Below are positions 3,921 through 13,707 of a stretch of 13,707 nucleotides of DNA, piece after piece (position 1 is the stretch's first letter; each line of letters starts with the position of its first letter). The stretch comes from a virus: the UHGV virus genome UHGV-1773340; one strand, written 5' to 3'. The translations under genes were made by a program, and so were the position numbers. Below the pieces are notes generated by a model. That model was given only the letters and a program-made list of their open reading frames with translations, did no database searches and was not told where the DNA came from.

Positions 3921-6391
3921 TGGCTATCAGTTGGATCCAGCCCAGCTTTGCTGGTGGTGAGATTGGACCGTCGTTGTACGGTCGTATCGACATGGCGAAG
4001 TACCAGGTGGCATTGCGCAAGTGCGATAACTTTATCGTGCGGCAGTATGGCGGCGTTGAGAATCGACCTGGTACGCGTTTTGTCGGTGCCGCCAAATACC
4101 CAAATCGGAAATGCCGCCTGATCCCGTTCCAGTTCTCGACGGTTCAGACTTATGCTCTGGAGTTCGGACACCAGTACATGCGCGTTATCAAAGATGGTGC
4201 GTTGGTGCTGAACAGCAGCAATGTTATTTATGAAATTGCCACGCCATATACTGAAGCCGATCTGTTCCGAATTAAATTCACGCAAAGCGCAGACGTGCTT
4301 ACGCTTGTTCATCCGGCATACCCGCCGAAAGAGTTGCGTCGCTATGCGCATGACAACTGGCAACTGGTTGATGTGGTAACGAAGAACGGACCATTTGAAG
4401 ATATCAATATTGACGAGTCAGTGACGGTTTATGCCAGCGCCAGCACCGGGACAATTACGTTAACGGCAAGCGCCTCTATTTTTGGCGCGGAGCAGGTAGG
4501 CAAATTGTTCTATCTGGAACAGCCTGCAGTGGATTCAGTGCCGGTATGGGAAACCAGTAAGAGTACGTCGATTGGCGATATTCGCCGTGCAGACAGTAAC
4601 TACTATCGCGCCGTTACAGCAGGCAAAACAGGTACTTTGCGCCCTTCGCATACAGAAGGCACATCATGGGATGGCTGGGGCGGATCCGGTGATGATGATA
4701 CTGGTATTGAGTGGGAATATCTGCACAGTGGTTTTGGCATTGCCCGTATCACTGCTGCAAATGGAACTACTGCAACTGCCGAGGTGATTTCCTATATCCC
4801 TTCGCAGGTCGTTGGCGAGGATAATGCCAGCTATAAATGGGCTAAATATGCCTGGAACAGTGTTAATGGTTATCCTGGCACTGTTGTTTATTATCAACAA
4901 CGTCTTTACTTCGCCGCATCGACTGCGTTCCCTCAGACTATCTGGGCCAGCCGTACCGGGGATTATAAGGATTTTGGCAAAAGCAATCCTACGCAGGATG
5001 ACGACAGAATTATCTACACCTATGCCGGGCGTCAGGTTAATGAGATCCGCCACCTGATTGATGTTGGTTCGCTGGTGGCGCTGACTTCCGGAGGTGAGTA
5101 CGTCATCACCGGCGACCAGAACAAAGTATTAACCCCATCATCATTTGCATTCAGCTCTCAGGGATCAAATGGCTCGAGCAATGTCCCACCAATTGCCGTG
5201 GCGAATATTGCTCTGTTCGTCCAGGAGAAAGGCAGTGTTGTCCGTGATCTGGCCTACTCATTCGATGTTGACGGCTATCAGGGGAACGACCTGACCATCC
5301 TTGCTAATCATCTTTTTCAGAAGCACAGCATCGTTGACTGGTGCTTCTCTATTGTCCCTTACTCCAGCGCCTTCTGCATTCGTGATGACGGTAAATTACT
5401 GGTGATGACCTATTTGCGTGATCAACAGGTTTTTGCATGGGCACCACAGTCCAGTACCGGAAAATATGAAAGCACATGCAGTATCAGCGAAGGAAATGAA
5501 GATGCGGTGTATTTCGTCGTTAACCGAACCGTTAACGGGCAAACAGTGAGATACATCGAGCGGCTGTCCAGCCGTTTATTTACCAGCGATGAAGATGCTT
5601 TCTTTGTTGATTCTGGCCTTAGCTATGATGGAAGAAATACGTCTGACAGAACGATGACCATCACTGGTGGTTCTGGTGAATGGGATTACCGTGCGGAATA
5701 TACAATCAGTGTTTCTGGTGGTGCGTACTTCACCAGTAGTGATGTCGGCGCGCAACTACAGTTCCCTTATACCGGAACTGTTCCTGATACTGGCGATGAA
5801 GTGTCAAAAGAATTACGTTGCGACATTATTTCTGTAACCAGCAATACCGCTGTAGTGGTTCGTGCTAACAGGAACGTCCCGCCATCCCTCAGGAGTGTGG
5901 CCACCACGAACTGGCAGATGGCGCGCCGGACATTTGGAGGCCTGTCTCATCTTGAAGGCCAGGCCGTAAACATTCTCTCTGATGCGAACGTGGAACCACA
6001 GAAAGTGGTTTCCGGAGGTGCCGTCACGCTGGAATCTCCGGGGGCTGTAGTGCACATCGGCCTGCCAATAACTGCTGAATTCGAAACACTGGATATCAAC
6101 ATTAACGGACAGGAAACGCTGCTGGATAAAAAACAGGTAACCCCCTCCGTTACTCTGGTTGTGAATGCCAGTCGCGGCATCTGGGCGACTACGCCCGGCG
6201 GTAAATGGTACGAATATCCACAGCGTGAATTCGAGTTCTACGATGATCCTGTTGATGATGCTACCGGAAAAGTAGAAGTGAAACTGGACAGTAACTGGGG
6301 CAAAAACGGACGTGTAAAAATCCGTCAGCTTGACCCGTTGCCGCTGTCTGTTCTTGCCGTTATTCCTCGCCTTACTGTTGGGGGATTCTGA
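3920..6391 (+). CDS. tail tubular protein B-like (T7 gp12-like nozzle), 823 aa
   Basis: 823 aa. The N-terminus (MAISWIQPSFAGGEIGPSLYGR…ENRPGTRF) resembles the remembered T7 gp12 N-terminus (…KNLKGGISQQP…LQKRPP…). Gene order and TGATG coupling to the previous gene support the call. Confidence 0.65.
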   Translation: MAISWIQPSFAGGEIGPSLYGRIDMAKYQVALRKCDNFIVRQYGGVENRPGTRFVGAAKYPNRKCRLIPFQFSTVQTYALEFGHQYMRVIKDGALVLNSSNVIYEIATPYTEADLFRIKFTQSADVLTLVHPAYPPKELRRYAHDNWQLVDVVTKNGPFEDINIDESVTVYASASTGTITLTASASIFGAEQVGKLFYLEQPAVDSVPVWETSKSTSIGDIRRADSNYYRAVTAGKTGTLRPSHTEGTSWDGWGGSGDDDTGIEWEYLHSGFGIARITAANGTTATAEVISYIPSQVVGEDNASYKWAKYAWNSVNGYPGTVVYYQQRLYFAASTAFPQTIWASRTGDYKDFGKSNPTQDDDRIIYTYAGRQVNEIRHLIDVGSLVALTSGGEYVITGDQNKVLTPSSFAFSSQGSNGSSNVPPIAVANIALFVQEKGSVVRDLAYSFDVDGYQGNDLTILANHLFQKHSIVDWCFSIVPYSSAFCIRDDGKLLVMTYLRDQQVFAWAPQSSTGKYESTCSISEGNEDAVYFVVNRTVNGQTVRYIERLSSRLFTSDEDAFFVDSGLSYDGRNTSDRTMTITGGSGEWDYRAEYTISVSGGAYFTSSDVGAQLQFPYTGTVPDTGDEVSKELRCDIISVTSNTAVVVRANRNVPPSLRSVATTNWQMARRTFGGLSHLEGQAVNILSDANVEPQKVVSGGAVTLESPGAVVHIGLPITAEFETLDININGQETLLDKKQVTPSVTLVVNASRGIWATTPGGKWYEYPQREFEFYDDPVDDATGKVEVKLDSNWGKNGRVKIRQLDPLPLSVLAVIPRLTVGGF

Positions 6392-6855
6392 TGATCGATG
6401 TTCGAATTATTCCCGCCACCGAAGAGCATCTTCAGATGATTTTGCCGGATGTTCGTCAGGCTGATATTGACGAACTGTATGCGGTATCACTGATGACTAC
6501 CGAAGATGCGCTGCGTGTTGGTCTGCGTACTGCGACTATGGCCTGGTCAGGATTTGCGAACGGAGAACTGGTAACCATGTTTGGCGTATCTCCGGCGTCA
6601 ATGATCGGTGGCAATGGTACGCCCTGGCTGGTCGGAACCAGCCGTATTGAAAAATATCAGAAGACATTTCTTCGCCACTGCCGCCCGGTATTGCAGCAGA
6701 TGCTGGCAGTTTATCCGCGCCTGGAAAACTATGTCGACGAGCGAAACCATGTTGCCAAAGCATGGCTGCACTGGCTTGGATTCAGGCTTGAAGAAGCCGC
6801 GCCTTATGGTGCTCTTGGTCTTAATTTCCACAGATTTCACATGGAGAGAAAATAA
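6391..6855 (+). CDS. internal virion protein at the gp13 position, 154 aa; possible GNAT-like fold
   Basis: TGATG overlap with the previous gene. The C-terminal segment …ERNHVAKAWLHWLGFRLEE resembles the N-x-x-A-x-x-L-x-x-x-GF motif of acetyltransferase-type folds. This is a weak, motif-level observation. Confidence 0.55.
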   Translation: MIDVRIIPATEEHLQMILPDVRQADIDELYAVSLMTTEDALRVGLRTATMAWSGFANGELVTMFGVSPASMIGGNGTPWLVGTSRIEKYQKTFLRHCRPVLQQMLAVYPRLENYVDERNHVAKAWLHWLGFRLEEAAPYGALGLNFHRFHMERK

Positions 6856-7400
6856 TGTGCGATCCGGTTATTGCTGGTGGCGCAATGCTCGCCATGAGTG
6901 GCATTCAGGCATACACCCAGTACCAACAGGGAAAGTATGCCTCGAAGGTTGCAGAAGCGAACGCAGATATAGCCACAGCTCAGGCAAATGATGCAATAAA
7001 CAGAGGTAACGCTGAAGCTGAGCAACGGCGCAGAGAGACCCGACAGCGGCTTGGTACACAGGCGGCGACAATGGGGGCTACCGGCGCTGATTTATCTACA
7101 GGTAACGCGCTGGATATATTTGGCGACACTGCCCAGTTTGGCGCTCTTGATTCTCTGACGACGGTGAATAACGCGCAACGCGAGGCTTACGGTTATCAGG
7201 TTCAGGCTGCCAACTATAAAGCAGAAGCCAGTTCAGTCCGTAAACAGGGGAATGTGGGAGCAGCAACAACATTGCTCACTGCGCCTCTGAAGGCATACGG
7301 TGCGTACCAGATGTTTGGTGGGACGTGGAGTCCGTTTACTCAAAGCACCCCTGCGCCAATCGGGGCAGCAGCAGGAACCAGATTACCCGGAGGATTATAA
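6855..7400 (+). CDS. internal virion protein B-like (T7 gp14-like), 181 aa
   Basis: The N-terminus [20 protein letters not shown]… recalls the T7 gp14 N-terminus (MC…I…SGAQA…). The protein is Ala/Gly/Gln-rich, about the same size as gp14, and in the gp14 position. GGAGAG at 6843..6848 precedes the start; TAATG overlap. Confidence 0.6.
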
Positions 7401-10216
7401 TGCCAGTCGTACCAACAGTATCCGGCCGTCAGGTTCAGAGCCGTGGAGTTCAGTCAGCAGGCTTGCAGACGTTTTCTCAGCCAGGTATTGGTGATGCTTT
7501 TGTTCGGGCAGGGACAGAGGCAATTGATGTTTTTGGTCAGGCAAAACAGCGTGCCAATATCGCTCTGGCTCAGGAGGCATCTCTTAACCTCAGTCAGATA
7601 AGCAGTGATCTGCTGAATAATCCTGAAACAGGATTGCTTAACCTGAAAGGGAAAAATGCTATTGGAAAAGGTCAGGAGTATACGCAGCAGTTTGATGCTC
7701 AGGTCGAACAACTGGCTATGTCGCTGCCGGATGAACAGGCTCGTAATGCTTTCATGCAGCAGGCGCAGCAGCAGCGCATTCAGTTCACTACGCAGGCAGG
7801 GCGGCACGAGATAGGGCAAATAAATGCCTACGAAGAAGGCCAGTTTCAGGCTACGCTGCTGAACAATGGTAAAAATTCCGCAGCATTGTATGGCGACAAC
7901 GCCGCATACGTATTGGCTAATAAGCAAACTTTCCAGCAAATTGAGGATTACGGCATTGCACATGGCTGGAGTGACGAGCAAATCCAGGCCAAGAAAATCG
8001 AGTTTAAAGAGAAGGTTGCTGATGCTGCATTGTCCCAGTGGTCAGCAAATAACGCGATCGGCTTCATTCAGAGCAACGGTGAGCTGAGCGACACGGTAGC
8101 CGGTTCACGGCGGGCTACTGTTAACCCTTATGGTGGTGAGCCATCATCTACGAAAGGAATGGTTACCCAGGGGAACATTAACTTATTCAACCGACCATCT
8201 GTAAAAAACGAAGATGGTACTATCAGCACGGTAAGAACTATTTCCATAGGCACTGATGCAGGTGAAGTCCTGATACCAACGGTCAGTGATGACGGTAAAT
8301 TACTTTCAGATGATGAAGCAATCGCGCTATATGAAAAAACAGGAAAGCACCTTGGAATATTTGATAATCCTGATGATGCGACTGCATATGCTGAAAAGTT
8401 GCACGAGCAGCAAGATCAGTATTATGTGAAAGGTGATAGCGGCGATGCCAGGGGTATCCGCAACAATAACCCAGGAAACCTTGAAGCCAGCTCATCAAAC
8501 CCATGGATTGGGCAGACTGGTAGTGATGGCCGGTTTGCAAAATTCGAGACTCCGGAGCATGGGATCCGCGCGCTGGGCCGCAACCTCATATCCTACCAGC
8601 GACAGGGGATTGATACCGTTGGCGAGATCATTAACCGTTGGGCGCCGCCGTCTGACAATAACGACACGGCTGCATACATCAAAGCAGTTTGCGCGCAGTT
8701 AGGCGTAACGGCAAACCAGCCTCTTGACGCTTCCAATCCTGACACGCTGCAGGCACTCTGTGCCGCCATCATTAAGCATGAAAACGGCAGTCAGCCATAC
8801 AGCCAGGATCAGTTGTCCACCGGCGTCAGCGCAGCTCTTGGGCTGTCACAGTTGCCAACCAGCAATAAACGCTACACCGGCAATGCAGCATTCGACGCCG
8901 CCACGCCGGAAGCGCAGGCCACTTTTCTGCGCCAGGCTGATCAGATCCGCCGGCAGCAGCAGGCCGAATACAGAACGGTTATCGATAGCCAGGTTCGCGA
9001 CGCCACCGCGGCTTACATGCGAGGTGTTGAGTTCCCAAACCCGCCAGGGGAAGCTGATTTTATGGCTGCCTACGGCGTGCGGGAGGGAAACCAGCGTTAC
9101 ACCGAATTCAGGAATACGCAGATTGCCGGGCAGTACATTGGCTCATTCCGCAACATGCCGACAAGCAGCATTACAGCATATGTTGAGCAATTACGCCCGG
9201 ATACTGGTGAGACAGGGGAGGGTTATGCGGCACGAGCCGCTCTTTATGACAACGTTGTGTCGGCTGCAAGTCAGGTGATAAAGCAGCGACAGGCTGATCC
9301 TGTACAGTTCTCTCTTGCCGCCGGACAGGCAAAGCCTATCGACATGAGCAATAAGGATAACTTTGGACAGAGCGTTGCCTTGCGTGCTGCTCAGGTCAGT
9401 GACCTTGCTAAGTCATATGGCACTCCACTGACGTTCTTTTCCAAAGACGAGGCCAATCAGATCGGTGTTTTCTTTCGTGATGCGCCCGTTTCCCAACAGG
9501 CAGCATATCTCGATACCATCAGGCAGAGCACTGGTGGTGGGCAGGTGTATATGTCAGCACTACAGCAGATCAGTGCCAACGCTCCATCTGCTGCCGTTGC
9601 CGGGATACTGATGGATAAGCCTGGTGGTATTTTGGCAGAAAAAAACTGGTTTAATCCGGATGTTTCCGTGTCTCCTGAAACCGCTGCGCAGACAATTCTT
9701 GCTGGCGCGGCGGCTCGTAAAGGTACTGATGATGCGAAAGGTATTCCGATGCCTAAAGATGCTGATCTTCGCCTTGAGTTTTCTGACATGGTGAAGGATG
9801 CATTTGCTGGTGACGCTCAGGGGGCATCAATGGCATACGAGATCGCAAAGGATTATTACGCTGGTGTGATGGCGAAAAAAGGCGTGGTATCAGGCGAAAT
9901 TGACAATGATGTCTGGAAACAGGCTGTTAACGTAGCTACAGGTGGCGTGCATGACTATAACGGAATGGGGAATGTCCTTTTGCCGTGGGGAATGTCTGCA
10001 GAGCAATTCGATAAGCAGGTTAATCAGGCTTGGAATGAACAAGTTGTCGGCTCCGGGATAAAAACACCGCCTGGTCAGTATGGTTTGCAAAGTTACGGCG
10101 ATAGTCAGTACCTGGTGAAACTTGGTACTGGTTATCTGCTGAAAGATGATGGTTCTCCCGTTGTTCTTAATCTGACACAGAAGCGTCAGAGATTCTCCGG
10201 AGATATTCCGCAATGA
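7400..10216 (+). CDS. large internal virion/ejection protein (938 aa) at the gp15 position, with a central conserved-looking module
   Basis: GGAGGA at 7389..7394 lies 5 nt before the ATG at 7400, which overlaps the upstream TAA. The track's start at 7325 would overlap the upstream gene by 75 nt and is rejected. A central segment (nt about 8440..8830: …[45 protein letters not shown]…[13 protein letters not shown]…) looks like a globular, possibly enzymatic domain. Confidence 0.7.
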
Positions 10217-12015
10217 GTTACTTTGGCCTTAATCCAGTAAACCAGAATCAGCAGCTTGACGAAGCAGCATCAAATCCAGCTGGCTTTAACAGCGATGTTG
10301 GTTTTTTCGACAATGCTGTAGGAGCGGCATTGTCTGGTTTGTACTCCGGGCTGGTGGCAAAGCCAGATCAGTTGCTATGGGCAGGGATGGATAAAATCGT
10401 ATCCCCGATCGCTCAGTTTGTTAACGAAAACACCTCGCTCAATGACACTTCAGTTTCATACATTGCTGAGCAGAGAAAACTAGCAGAGCAGCAGGTTAAG
10501 CGGCTGACGCCTGATGCCGCGACAACCGGAACCGCCGGGCAGGTTCTTTATGGGTTGTTCGATATGGGCGGGCAGGCTGTTGTCGGTACAACGCTCGGTG
10601 GTCCTGTCGGAGGTGCAGCGGCGGTAACTTCGCTACAGGGTTTTTCTGAGTTTGAACGGCTGACAGCACAGGGGGTTGATTTCAGGACGGCGCAGGAAGC
10701 GGGATTAGTGCAGGGCATTACTGCTGGTGCCGGAACACTGATCCCTATGAGCCTCGGGTTACGTGCTGGTGGTGCGCTGGCGGAAGGTGTGGCGGCTCAG
10801 CTTGCGCGGACGGGTGAGAGTTCAGTGCGACGCGCCGCAGCAACAGCAGTACGTGCAACGCCAGATATTGCCTATGCCGCAGGTACAAATATTGCGTTCG
10901 GTATGGCACAGCGTGGGCTTACTGCAAAAACGCTTCGTGATGGTGGCTATAGCGAAATGGCTAACCAGTATGATGTGTTGGATCGACAGGCAATTGCTAT
11001 TGATGCTGTTCTTGGGGTGGCGTTTGGTGGTGTCGGCAGATTTATTAACTCTCGCGGCGAGTCTACAAACGCACCAAATTTTTCACCAGTTGATATCGAT
11101 GCTGCACTGGCGGCGAATGCCGCTCATCATGCTGAAATTGATATTGCGCCCGGCGTGCCGATCAACGTGCTTTCGCGCAATTCTCACATTCAGGCTCTGC
11201 GAAAAGCTATGTCTGATGTTAGCCAGGGGAGATCTGTAGACGTTGCCAGCATTGTTGAGTCTGCATCTTTCAGTGAAATTCCTGGGCGCAAGAGTCTGCT
11301 GTCTCAGGCAGTTAATGAGGCTCTGTCATCTGTAGATGATGGAGTAACGGCGCGCGCTATAGAAAATCGGTTGCTTGAAGAACAGGCCGCGCAGCTTTTG
11401 CCGCGTGGAGATAGACAGGTTTACCAGTCTGAAATCGCTAATAGCCAACGAATTATTGAAAATCTCAATGAACAGCGTGCACAAATTCTTGCAGAAGATC
11501 CAACCGGTAGCGGTAAAGCTTTGTCTCGTGCTCGATCAGATAAACAGGCCAGACTTCGCGATATTGATCAACGAATCCGGCAGGCACAAGAACGCCTGGA
11601 ATTTTCCCGTAACGCGTTGGCACCGCACGAGCCTGGCGGTCAGTTTTTTGAAGCTCGAGCAGAACTGGCTCGGAGACAGCAGGCAGAAAGTGAACTTAAT
11701 GCTCAGGCTGTTTCATTCTATAAAACAGCAGAGGTCAGGACGCCAGACGAAGTAGCTCCTTTTGAGCTTGATAAAATATTGCAACAGGCAGAACAAAAAA
11801 TGATGGCGGATCAGGCGGGAGATATTGATCTGCGCATAGCTGAAGACTCGCTGCTTGAATCACCTGACATGATAATCACCGTGCTGGATGATGATGGTAA
11901 TCCACAATCGCGCAGCGCGCGTGAAGTACTGGATGAAGCGAACAGGGAAAGTGAGCAGGCAATACAGGATTCCAGCCTGTTTGATGTCGCTGTGGCGTGT
12001 TTCTTGAGAGGTTAA
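10213..12015 (+). CDS. internal virion/ejection protein (600 aa) with Gly/Ala-rich hydrophobic segments and a charged helical C-terminal half
   Basis: ATGA overlap with the previous gene. Residues about 105..280 contain several GxxxG/A-rich hydrophobic stretches (for example [19 protein letters not shown] and [31 protein letters not shown]). The C-terminal half is Arg/Glu/Gln-rich and coiled-coil-like. Confidence 0.7.
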
Positions 12016-12020
12016 ATTAA

Positions 12021-13707
12021 ATGAGACAGGAATGTATACAAGCGGTCCAGCAGGCGGCGCAGCGCACGTTAACGGCGCGAGAAATACAGAACATTGAAGA
12101 CCGCATTTATCGAAATATGCGCTCCATTGCTCGTGATGACCCGATGTCGTGGAGACAACTTTCCGAATCAGAGCGGCTATATCGTGCAGCACAATTGGCA
12201 TCTGAAGAATTACAGCGAGAAGCGACATTAAAGAAACGTCGTGTGGCCCTCACTATAGCCGCACGTCAGAGATTGGATAAATTTATCAATAGCTATCAAG
12301 GGGCTGATGGGAAACTTGGCGCTCTTAACCGTACTATTGCTTTTAATGCAGACGGTAAATCGAATTTCCTCTCTGTTGAATCCAGAACAAAAGCCACTCG
12401 TGATTATGCATTGAGTCAATTGCAGGAGGCATTTGAAGCAGTTGATCCTCGCTTTTTTGGCCTGTTTGAAGATGAATCGGGCGTGCGTGACTTGGTATAT
12501 GAAATGCGAGGGAAAAATACTGGCAATGCTAAAGCAAGAAAAGGTGCTAAGGCGTGGAGAGAAGTGACAGATCTACTGCGCCGCCGGTTTAATGATGCTG
12601 GTGGGGACATTGGCTATCTCGAAAACTGGGGGATCCCTCAACATCATTCTATGGAAAAGGTTGGGGCGGTATCAAAAGATAAATGGGTTAGCGATGTTAT
12701 AGGTAAGCTGGATCGCAAATATTATACCCGAGCCGATGGACAACTGATGAACGATGACGAGTTGTCTGCATTTCTTGGAGAGGCTTATAACACGATCGCT
12801 ACTGGTGGGCTGAATAAGCTTACTGATACCGGAATGCGAATTTCCGGCGCACGTGCTAACCGTGGTAATGCATCACGACAGATACATTTCAAAGATGCAG
12901 ATTCCTATCTGCAATATCAGCAACTTTATGGCGATCGCTCTCTATGGGAAATCATGGTCGGTCACCTGGAAGGTATCAGTAAAGATATTGCACTGGTGGA
13001 AACATATGGCCCAAACCCCGATCATGTTTTCCGCTCTCTTCTTGATCAGGTGAAGGCAGAAACGGCAACAGCTAACCCGAGTAAAACCGGTAAAGTCGAG
13101 CGGCTGGCGAACAACACAGAGAATCTGTACAACTTTATTTCCGGAAAGACACAGCCTGTAGCGAATCCGCACATCGCGCGATGGTCTGACAATATCCGCA
13201 ACTGGCTGGTTGCCAGCAGACTCGGATCCGCGTTGCTATCATCGTTCTCTGATCTTGGAACCATGTATCTGTCTGCGAAGGTTACCAACCTTCCAATGAA
13301 TCAGTTATTCCGCAACCAGCTTGAAGCTATGGACCCAACGAACCGTACAGAACTTGCGCGGGCGCGCCGCGCTGGTCTGGCGATGGAATCTTTACTTGGC
13401 AGCGTTAACCGCTGGGCGATGGATAATATGGGGCCGTCAGTGTCTCGTTGGGCGGCAACGGCGGTAATGCGTGCCAGTGGGCTTACAGCATGGTCAGATG
13501 CGCACAAGCGCGCCTATGGCGTAACCATGATGGGAAGCCTGGGAGAAGTAGTGTCACGGACAGCAGACCTTCGTAGCCTCGATGACTCTGATTTTCGTAT
13601 CCTGAAAAGCAAAGGGATTACTGACACAGACTGGAGAGTATGGAAGCTGGCGCAACAGGAGGACTGGGGGAACGGTAATAATACGATGCTGACACCGGAA
13701 AGCATTA
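12021..13707 (+). CDS. large internal virion protein, 3'-truncated (more than 562 aa within the window); gp16 position
   Basis: Not in the supplied ORF track because it has no stop in the window. I translated frame 3 from the ATG at 12021 to the window end and found no stop codon (MRQECIQAVQQAAQRTLTAREIQNIEDRIYRNMRSIARDDPMSWRQL…TMLTPESI). GAGAGG at 12006..12011 lies 9 nt upstream. Same strand and operon as the preceding genes. Confidence 0.7.
   Translation, partial: MRQECIQAVQQAAQRTLTAREIQNIEDRIYRNMRSIARDDPMSWRQLSESERLYRAAQLASEELQREATLKKRRVALTIAARQRLDKFINSYQGADGKLGALNRTIAFNADGKSNFLSVESRTKATRDYALSQLQEAFEAVDPRFFGLFEDESGVRDLVYEMRGKNTGNAKARKGAKAWREVTDLLRRRFNDAGGDIGYLENWGIPQHHSMEKVGAVSKDKWVSDVIGKLDRKYYTRADGQLMNDDELSAFLGEAYNTIATGGLNKLTDTGMRISGARANRGNASRQIHFKDADSYLQYQQLYGDRSLWEIMVGHLEGISKDIALVETYGPNPDHVFRSLLDQVKAETATANPSKTGKVERLANNTENLYNFISGKTQPVANPHIARWSDNIRNWLVASRLGSALLSSFSDLGTMYLSAKVTNLPMNQLFRNQLEAMDPTNRTELARARRAGLAMESLLGSVNRWAMDNMGPSVSRWAATAVMRASGLTAWSDAHKRAYGVTMMGSLGEVVSRTADLRSLDDSDFRILKSKGITDTDWRVWKLAQQEDWGNGNNTMLTPESI

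Follow-up and report, generated by a model that had tools for sequence, protein, structure and literature searches.

The open reading frame (ORF) that starts at position 12021 of the UHGV virus genome UHGV-1773340 and runs off the 3' end of the 13,707-nucleotide stretch analysed here (referred to from now on as the window) encodes, with a probability that we put at roughly 0.8, the N-terminal 562 of the 826 residues of a gp16-class internal virion (ejection) protein from a short-tailed temperate phage of the phiV10/epsilon15 type (Uetakevirus). Comparison of sequence profiles showed the product to be a remote homolog of the body of T7 gp16 and of the beginning of its second membrane region, TMH II (TMH, transmembrane helix). 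The class had been proposed before: Hardies et al. in 2016 (PMC4819975) assigned epsilon15 gp17 to the family of T7 gp16 (IVP-D, for internal virion protein D) by comparing hidden Markov models, and the work described here confirms that assignment independently with newer tools. The gene is not new either, since it is already annotated in phiV10 and its relatives.

The identity of the gene could be established at the DNA level. The stretch beginning at 12021 corresponds to gene p20 of Escherichia phage phiV10 (genus Uetakevirus), described as a 'virion structural protein', with 98.8% DNA identity, and its product is 98% identical over 562 residues to a full-length relative, P0001. The profile PHROG 684, which bears the same description, was matched with an expectation value (E) of 5.3e-250, residues 1-562 falling on profile positions 1-567 of 840. 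The nearest cluster at 90% identity comprises 3855 member sequences, and an exhaustive HMMER search returned 5136 cluster representatives (2488 below 1e-30), nearly all of them collinear and about 810-860 residues long, from phages of Vibrio, Pelagibacter, Liberibacter, Burkholderia, Pseudomonas, Acinetobacter and others. Neither Pfam, searched with E up to 10, nor NCBIfam produced a single match for the fragment or for full-length relatives, which agrees with the statement of the first-pass annotation of this DNA that no enzymatic motif could be recognised. DNA similar to the phiV10-type structural module was found in 570 of 5426 complete Escherichia coli genomes, with 289 covering at least 80% of the window; these copies are nearly all chromosomal, and PGAP labels most of their genes, the 12021 gene included, as 'hypothetical protein'.

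The full length of the gene was obtained from contigs carrying the exact upstream 600-residue protein, which were retrieved to extend the ORF past the window. Two of them, L021 (NCBI GCA_018186295.1) and L022 (a Logan assembly), reproduce window positions 4213-13707 at 9495 of 9495 nucleotides, and both contain an uninterrupted gene of 826 codons, whose stop would lie at window coordinate 14501, 264 codons past the window. The allele in L021 and L022 is identical to the window at 562 of 562 residues and ends in VTVTPQ; the alleles found beside the identical upstream protein in L020 and L023 have 824 residues, end in VTPQ and share 553 of 562 residues with the window. Beginning 10 nucleotides after the 826-codon gene, L021 (10299-10475) has a conserved ORF of 46 codons in which two stretches are hydrophobic (MIAFILVVFVLVALGV...VAVVLILSGVAGYIGLS), and then a GC-rich terminator-like hairpin, GGCCGCTTTCGCGGCC. 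A counterpart of this small ORF is annotated in phiV10 (p21) and in SPN1S, and the gp18 ORF of epsilon15 occupies the equivalent position. The end of the 826-codon gene, followed by the small ORF and the hairpin, therefore places the end of the operon about 1 kb past the window, and no large unknown cassette follows the 12021 gene. The first-pass annotation, which had expected the cassette to continue beyond the edge and had advised extension downstream to the true stop, was right to this extent.

The assignment to the gp16 class derives from profile-profile comparison. Three profiles were used: one of 61 diverse members of the family (A1), one of eight full-length gp16 sequences (A3) and one of gp16 C-terminal halves (A2), the gp16 sequences being those of Autographiviridae, taken from annotated phage records. 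Alignment of A1 with A3 by hhalign gave a probability of 89.9% (E 1.7e-6) over 524 columns and paired residues 120-683 with T7 gp16 550-1165, while A1 and A2 aligned with a probability of 90.3% (E 1.5e-6); an FKSF motif is common to both families in the hhalign alignment. Against the single T7 gp16 sequence the probability was only 6%, and it reached 90% after the gp16 alignments had been built. The roles of T7 gp16-C and TMH II have been reviewed (PMC8954989), gp16-C being proposed as a cytoplasmic, DNA-binding hub that contains the 'clamp' mutations at 737-761. The only strongly hydrophobic helices found lie at 655-679 and 722-746, both past the window edge; in the full-length relative P0001, uncharged helices span 655-676 and 720-736, where the Kyte-Doolittle hydropathy peaks at 1.37 and 1.36 (1.44, 1.32 and 1.29 at 1132-1270 in T7 gp16). 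The first of them aligns with T7 gp16 1135-1153, the two together parallel TMH II (T7 1119-1290), and the L021 continuation keeps both, with a few substitutions. Gene order is in keeping with this, as the 12021 gene is the last large gene of an internal-virion-protein cluster and lies downstream of a T7_gp14-family gene; T7 gp16 is likewise the last large gene of an internal-protein cluster that begins with a gp14-family gene. The gp16 position suggested in the first pass is thus upheld by the profile alignment, by predicted-fold matches to IVP-D proteins and by gene order.

A structural prediction pointed in the same direction. AlphaFold2, run on the family alignment, yielded an 824-residue model composed entirely of helices, with a predicted local distance difference test score (pLDDT) of 87.8 and a predicted template-modelling score (pTM) of 0.88; long helices span residues 19-39 and 49-91 in the N-terminal segment. 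When this model was compared by Foldseek with the predicted viral structures of BFVD, it matched proteins named as internal virion or core proteins in Bordetella phage BB8, Ralstonia phage RSB3, Pseudomonas phage LKA1 and Xylella phage Cota with E from 1e-7 to 1e-9 and a template-modelling score on the query (TMq) of about 0.5, and a protein of Pseudomonas phage Ab05 at E 8e-6; relatives with an SLT domain or a 'large polyvalent protein associated domain' are also among these matches. Among 350,542 PDB chains, the best match of the model was 9vvp_L, a core protein of bacteriophage E1004, which the gp16 profile shows to be a gp16 ortholog of full length (E=0); no paper on phage E1004 turned up in the literature search. 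At the level of PDB sequences, the 12021 protein alone had no match. The sole match of the family profile was Legionella LidA (E 0.004, residues 57-220), which was rejected as coiled-coil compositional similarity.

Several observations weigh against the gp16-class assignment and set its limits. The link to gp16 is remote, with about 15-18% identity and a hhalign probability of 90% rather than 99%. T7 gp16 1-549, which includes the SLT lytic domain, the gp15-binding 'molecular tape' of gp16-N and TMH I (the last two at about 157-410), has no aligned counterpart in the 12021 product by hhalign, and the membrane topology of this product may therefore differ from that of T7 gp16. The candidate membrane helices are moderately hydrophobic, their Kyte-Doolittle values reaching 1.37 at most. 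The match to solved gp16 structures, through 9vvp_L, is weak (E 0.038, TM 0.18), the best 50 Foldseek matches listed from the PDB do not include T7 gp16 itself (7eyb), and nothing significant was found when the family profile was run against PDB sequences; the support from fold is therefore one of predicted against predicted structures. Presence in the virion is not known to have been established beyond epsilon15 gp17, which is 27.5% identical to the product studied here and is reported to be a virion protein (Jiang 2006, Kropinski 2007). A genetic study by Guichard in 2013 reportedly put epsilon15 gp17 in the 'central tube' of the tail, at a site distal to gp15, and not in an internal core.

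From its homology to T7 gp16, the 12021 product probably works as gp16 does, at the inner-membrane or cytoplasmic end of the ejection channel, and it is on this basis that we infer its virion location, ejection, membrane topology and handling of DNA. Briefly, the protein would be packed in the capsid alongside those encoded by the four genes before it and, at infection, it would be expelled via the portal-tail channel, after or with the gp14-like protein and two conduit proteins. The gp14-like protein would open the outer membrane, and the 938-residue gp15-like protein would cut peptidoglycan via its muralytic domain and build, with the 600-residue protein, a periplasmic conduit. The C-terminal hydrophobic helices of the 12021 product (about 651-752, past the window) would then insert into the inner membrane, and its helical body (about 120-650, mostly in the window) may form a membrane-proximal or cytoplasmic hub that the DNA traverses at the exit of its channel.

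The alternative that survives best, although we consider it improbable, is that the 12021 product is a permanent part of the tail, either the distal central tube or a plug retaining the DNA, and not an ejected core protein. In its favour, the passages of PMC12391199 that cite Guichard et al. 2013 place gp15 and gp17/16 in the packaging/injection device of epsilon15. However, proteins homologous to T7 gp11 and gp12 already occupy the tube positions: in the epsilon15 record, gp11 is noted to match T7 tubular protein A by HHpred, and epsilon15 gp12 was related to tubular tail protein B by Hardies et al. (PMC4819975). In addition, tube proteins are rich in beta structure, whereas the 12021 product is predicted to be all-alpha, carries hydrophobic C-terminal helices and is homologous to gp16. 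An ejected protein could also be squared with the genetic data, provided that the portal-tail channel is occupied by internal proteins. Because the tube positions are filled, the product is predicted all-alpha and it shares homology with gp16, the tail-part explanation was rated low, and the gp16-class ejection protein remains the preferred reading.

A second alternative, considered less probable still, is that the product carries a hidden cargo domain and acts as a host-directed enzyme or toxin carrier. What speaks for it is the existence of distant relatives fused to other modules, together with the polyvalent-protein matches in BFVD. In giant relatives of 1700-2900 residues (P0141, P0142, P0147, P0193 and P0238), the family module is found at the C-terminal end, and one of them, P0193, contains in addition an ART-PolyVal ADP-ribosyltransferase domain (1823-1909), so the family is tied to the 'polyvalent' virion proteins. 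In the window's phage, however, the 826-residue product consists of the helical module only, and the fusions occur only in distant relatives. Moreover, the Pfam and NCBIfam searches were empty even at E up to 10, the 824-residue model is a single unbroken body of helices that runs collinear with the core of the family, and matches to non-phage PDB entries are weak, of helical-repeat or transporter type, with probabilities of at most 0.2. The one insertion that is common among family members lies at residues 570-582; it is coiled-coil-like, not an enzyme, and missing from the window's allele. An N-terminal SLT peptidoglycan-hydrolase domain was not found in the 12021 product either, as judged from Pfam with E up to 10 and from a gp16 alignment that starts at T7 550; this domain is likewise missing from the gp16-like proteins of P22 and Sf6 (PMC8954989), and it therefore does not define the wider gp16 class. 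The first-pass annotation had pointed out that large terminal internal proteins are where short-tailed phages commonly place transglycosylase, toxin or other host-directed domains; this expectation is not borne out for the 12021 product, which has a helical gp16-type body only, the muralytic module being in the 938-residue gene.

That the ORF might be an artefact, whether a frame open by chance or one created when an error of sequencing or assembly fused frames, had been raised only as a way in which the first reading could fail, nothing was found in its favour, and it is excluded by the data that follow. The ORF starts with the ATG at 12021-12023, five nucleotides after the TAA (12013-12015) of the preceding 600-codon gene and on the same strand, so that its description as the next operon member stands. 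Its frame contains no stop in 562 codons, through to the window's final base, compared with 16-47 stops in each of the remaining five frames; given the base composition, the chance of such a stop-free run is about 5e-13. The ORF had been reported as un-called because the mechanical list of ORFs omits those that run off an end. Compared with its ortholog in Salmonella phage SPN1S (79% nucleotide identity), the codons that differ comprise 273 synonymous and 41 non-synonymous cases, and third codon positions hold 295 of the 356 base differences, which shows that the ORF is a gene under purifying selection. The independent NCBI and Logan contigs described above are identical to the window and keep the same frame on to the stop, and the thousands of collinear relatives are equally at odds with an artefact. 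The reported richness in certain amino acids was also reproduced (Arg 1.65-fold, Trp 1.54-fold and Asn 1.51-fold), taking as reference rough background frequencies for E. coli. Scans for promoters and terminators within 11500-13707 gave no excess over shuffled controls.

The window as a whole represents the structural module of a phiV10-type phage, from the protease and the epsilon15-type major capsid protein (Pfam GP7) through the tail genes onward. Its last part reads, in order, a tail gp12-like gene, the genes for a 154-residue protein, a T7_gp14-family protein, a 938-residue protein and a 600-residue protein, the 12021 ORF and, in the extended contigs, the 46-residue ORF and the terminator-like hairpin. 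The features located in the window are collected in Table 1.

Table 1. Coordinates in the window of the 12021 gene, its parts and the neighbouring genes (aa, amino acids; nt, nucleotides).
Feature	Position	Strand	Basis
154-aa internal virion protein, epsilon15 gp13 ortholog (T7 gp13 / IVP-A position)	6391-6855	+	PHROG 308; Hardies et al. (PMC4819975)
181-aa internal virion protein of the T7 gp14 family	6855-7400	+	Pfam PF24072 T7_gp14, E 2.9e-7, 31 bits (cut-off 27); PHROG 418
938-aa epsilon15 gp15-like virion protein	7400-10216	+	GGAGG at 7390-7394; overlapping TAATG to 7402
600-aa gene, ortholog of epsilon15 gp16 / phiV10 p19	10213-12015	+	PHROG 1145; synteny
Shine-Dalgarno-like GAGAGG	12006-12011	+	9 nt 5' of the start codon; visible in the sequence itself
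Codons 1-562, out of 826, of the ortholog of phiV10 p20 / epsilon15 gp17	12021-13707	+	Open frame; 98.8% nt identity to phiV10 p20; identical contigs; PHROG 684
N-terminal helical segment with no T7 gp16 counterpart found (residues 1-119)	12021-12377	+	hhalign alignment begins at residue 120
Codon of Cys5, the sole Cys in 562 residues	12033-12035	+	Invariant in 61 diverse sequences
Helical body aligning with T7 gp16 about 550-1050, within gp16-C (residues 120-562)	12378-13707	+	hhalign

As for the individual neighbours, the epsilon15 record gives an HHpred match of gp13 to GNAT acetyltransferases, and T7 gp14 is a component of the outer-membrane pore. The 938-residue gene starts at the ATG at 7400; the mechanical list has it at the GTG at 7325 (963 codons), inside the preceding gene. 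A part of its product, residues of about 350-470 (window 8447-8806), is homologous to the domain at the N-terminus of E1004 Gp29 (E 6.8e-39) and to the endolysin of solved structure 7q47 (E 1.2e-18), and the epsilon15 record lists an HHpred SLT match for gp15; Pfam does not detect this domain. By these sequence matches, the muralytic module of the operon is located in the 938-residue gp15-like gene and not in the 12021 ORF. It was also observed that one lytic module is borne by different ejection proteins in different podophages. The gp15-like protein of the window has 938 residues and that of phiV10 837, the extra segment of about 100 residues corresponding to residues 243-349 (window about 8126-8446); the blocks that flank it are 93-94% identical to phiV10, and the long form is also present in SPN1S (937 residues) and L021 (938 residues). 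The 600-residue protein has no significant match in Pfam or NCBIfam, and its family was proposed by Hardies et al. (PMC4819975) to provide part of the IVP-C, T7 gp15-like, function.

Comparison with named systems places the 12021 gene more precisely. Gene p20 of phiV10 (YP_512274.1, 824 residues) is the same gene, with eight amino-acid differences in 562 codons; it also starts 5 nucleotides after its upstream neighbour, p19, and is followed by a 46-residue ORF with two predicted membrane segments and a terminator, but it ends in VTPQ, whereas the window's allele has 826 residues and ends in VTVTPQ, and the gp15-like gene of phiV10 encodes about 100 residues fewer than that of the window's phage. 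Epsilon15 gp17 (NP_848225.1, 918 residues) is the ortholog by synteny, full-length alignment and the N-terminal Cys5, although it is only 27.5% identical to the 12021 product and about 90 residues longer. With T7 gp16 (1318 residues; PDB 7EYB and 7K5C), the 12021 product shares a homologous helical body, the FKSF motif and the first TMH II helix; in contrast, it is about 500 residues shorter, without the SLT lytic transglycosylase domain, the 'tape' and TMH I, and only the 12021 product has the 119-residue N-terminal segment with an invariant Cys. The operons differ as well, since that of the window has two genes (938 and 600 residues) where T7 has gp15, that is, one extra between the gp14-like gene and the 12021 gene. 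E1004 Gp29 (PDB 9vvp chain L, 1295 residues), the weak best match among solved structures, has a muralytic N-terminal domain that is homologous to the gp15-like protein of the window at about 350-470, and not to the 12021 ORF. The gp60 type of F116/H66 and the C-terminal domain of N4 gp50 also carry the IVP-D module, according to Hardies et al. (PMC4819975); unlike these, the 12021 product is the bare module, to which no polymerase, methylase, ADP-ribosyltransferase or further effector domain is fused. Table 1 of PMC8954989 lists as ejection proteins of 'Epsilon 15' gp11, gp12 and gp13, with 229, 499 and 708 residues, whereas the corresponding sizes in the epsilon15 record are 201, 825 and 154 residues. 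Because of this disagreement the assignment was not used; the entry seems to refer to a different, P22-like phage, and the clustering of Epsilon15 with P22 should be treated with caution.

Two further traits of the family were noticed. The first is Cys5, which has no counterpart in T7 gp16: of 120 full-length representatives, 118 have a Cys somewhere between residues 3 and 9, epsilon15 gp17 (MKQAC) among them. The second is an insertion of 200-310 residues at one fixed loop, equivalent to residues 570-582, in 14 of the 150 best representatives (P0124, P0125, P0129, P0143, P0153, P0170, P0184 and others). This loop lies just past the window edge, and the insertion is absent from the window's allele, as seen in L021 and L022. 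The possibility that these inserts are cargo enzymes was considered and rejected: they are mutually homologous, rich in A, E, R and Q, coiled-coil-like and without a Pfam match, and they may be length-adjusting spacers. A speculative proposal, to which we attach a low likelihood, is that the N-terminal 119 residues with Cys5 and the insertion slot at 570-582 are lineage-specific devices of a 'split' ejectosome, in which a disulfide through Cys5 could lock an oligomer in the oxidising periplasm and the insert could adjust length. Should this proposal be true, epsilon15-type gp17 would be a minimal, DNA-conducting gp16 hub, and the other functions of gp16 would reside on the two upstream genes.

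The 12021 gene opens no long-standing question, and the main value of these results is the correct annotation of a very common prophage gene that Pfam, NCBIfam and PGAP leave 'hypothetical': it can be labelled as an ejection protein of the gp16 class that lacks a lytic domain. To the family assignment published in 2016, they add its independent confirmation, the exact full length of the window's allele and the site of the muralytic module, which in the phiV10/epsilon15 lineage lies on the gp15-like protein, while T7-like phages carry one on gp16.

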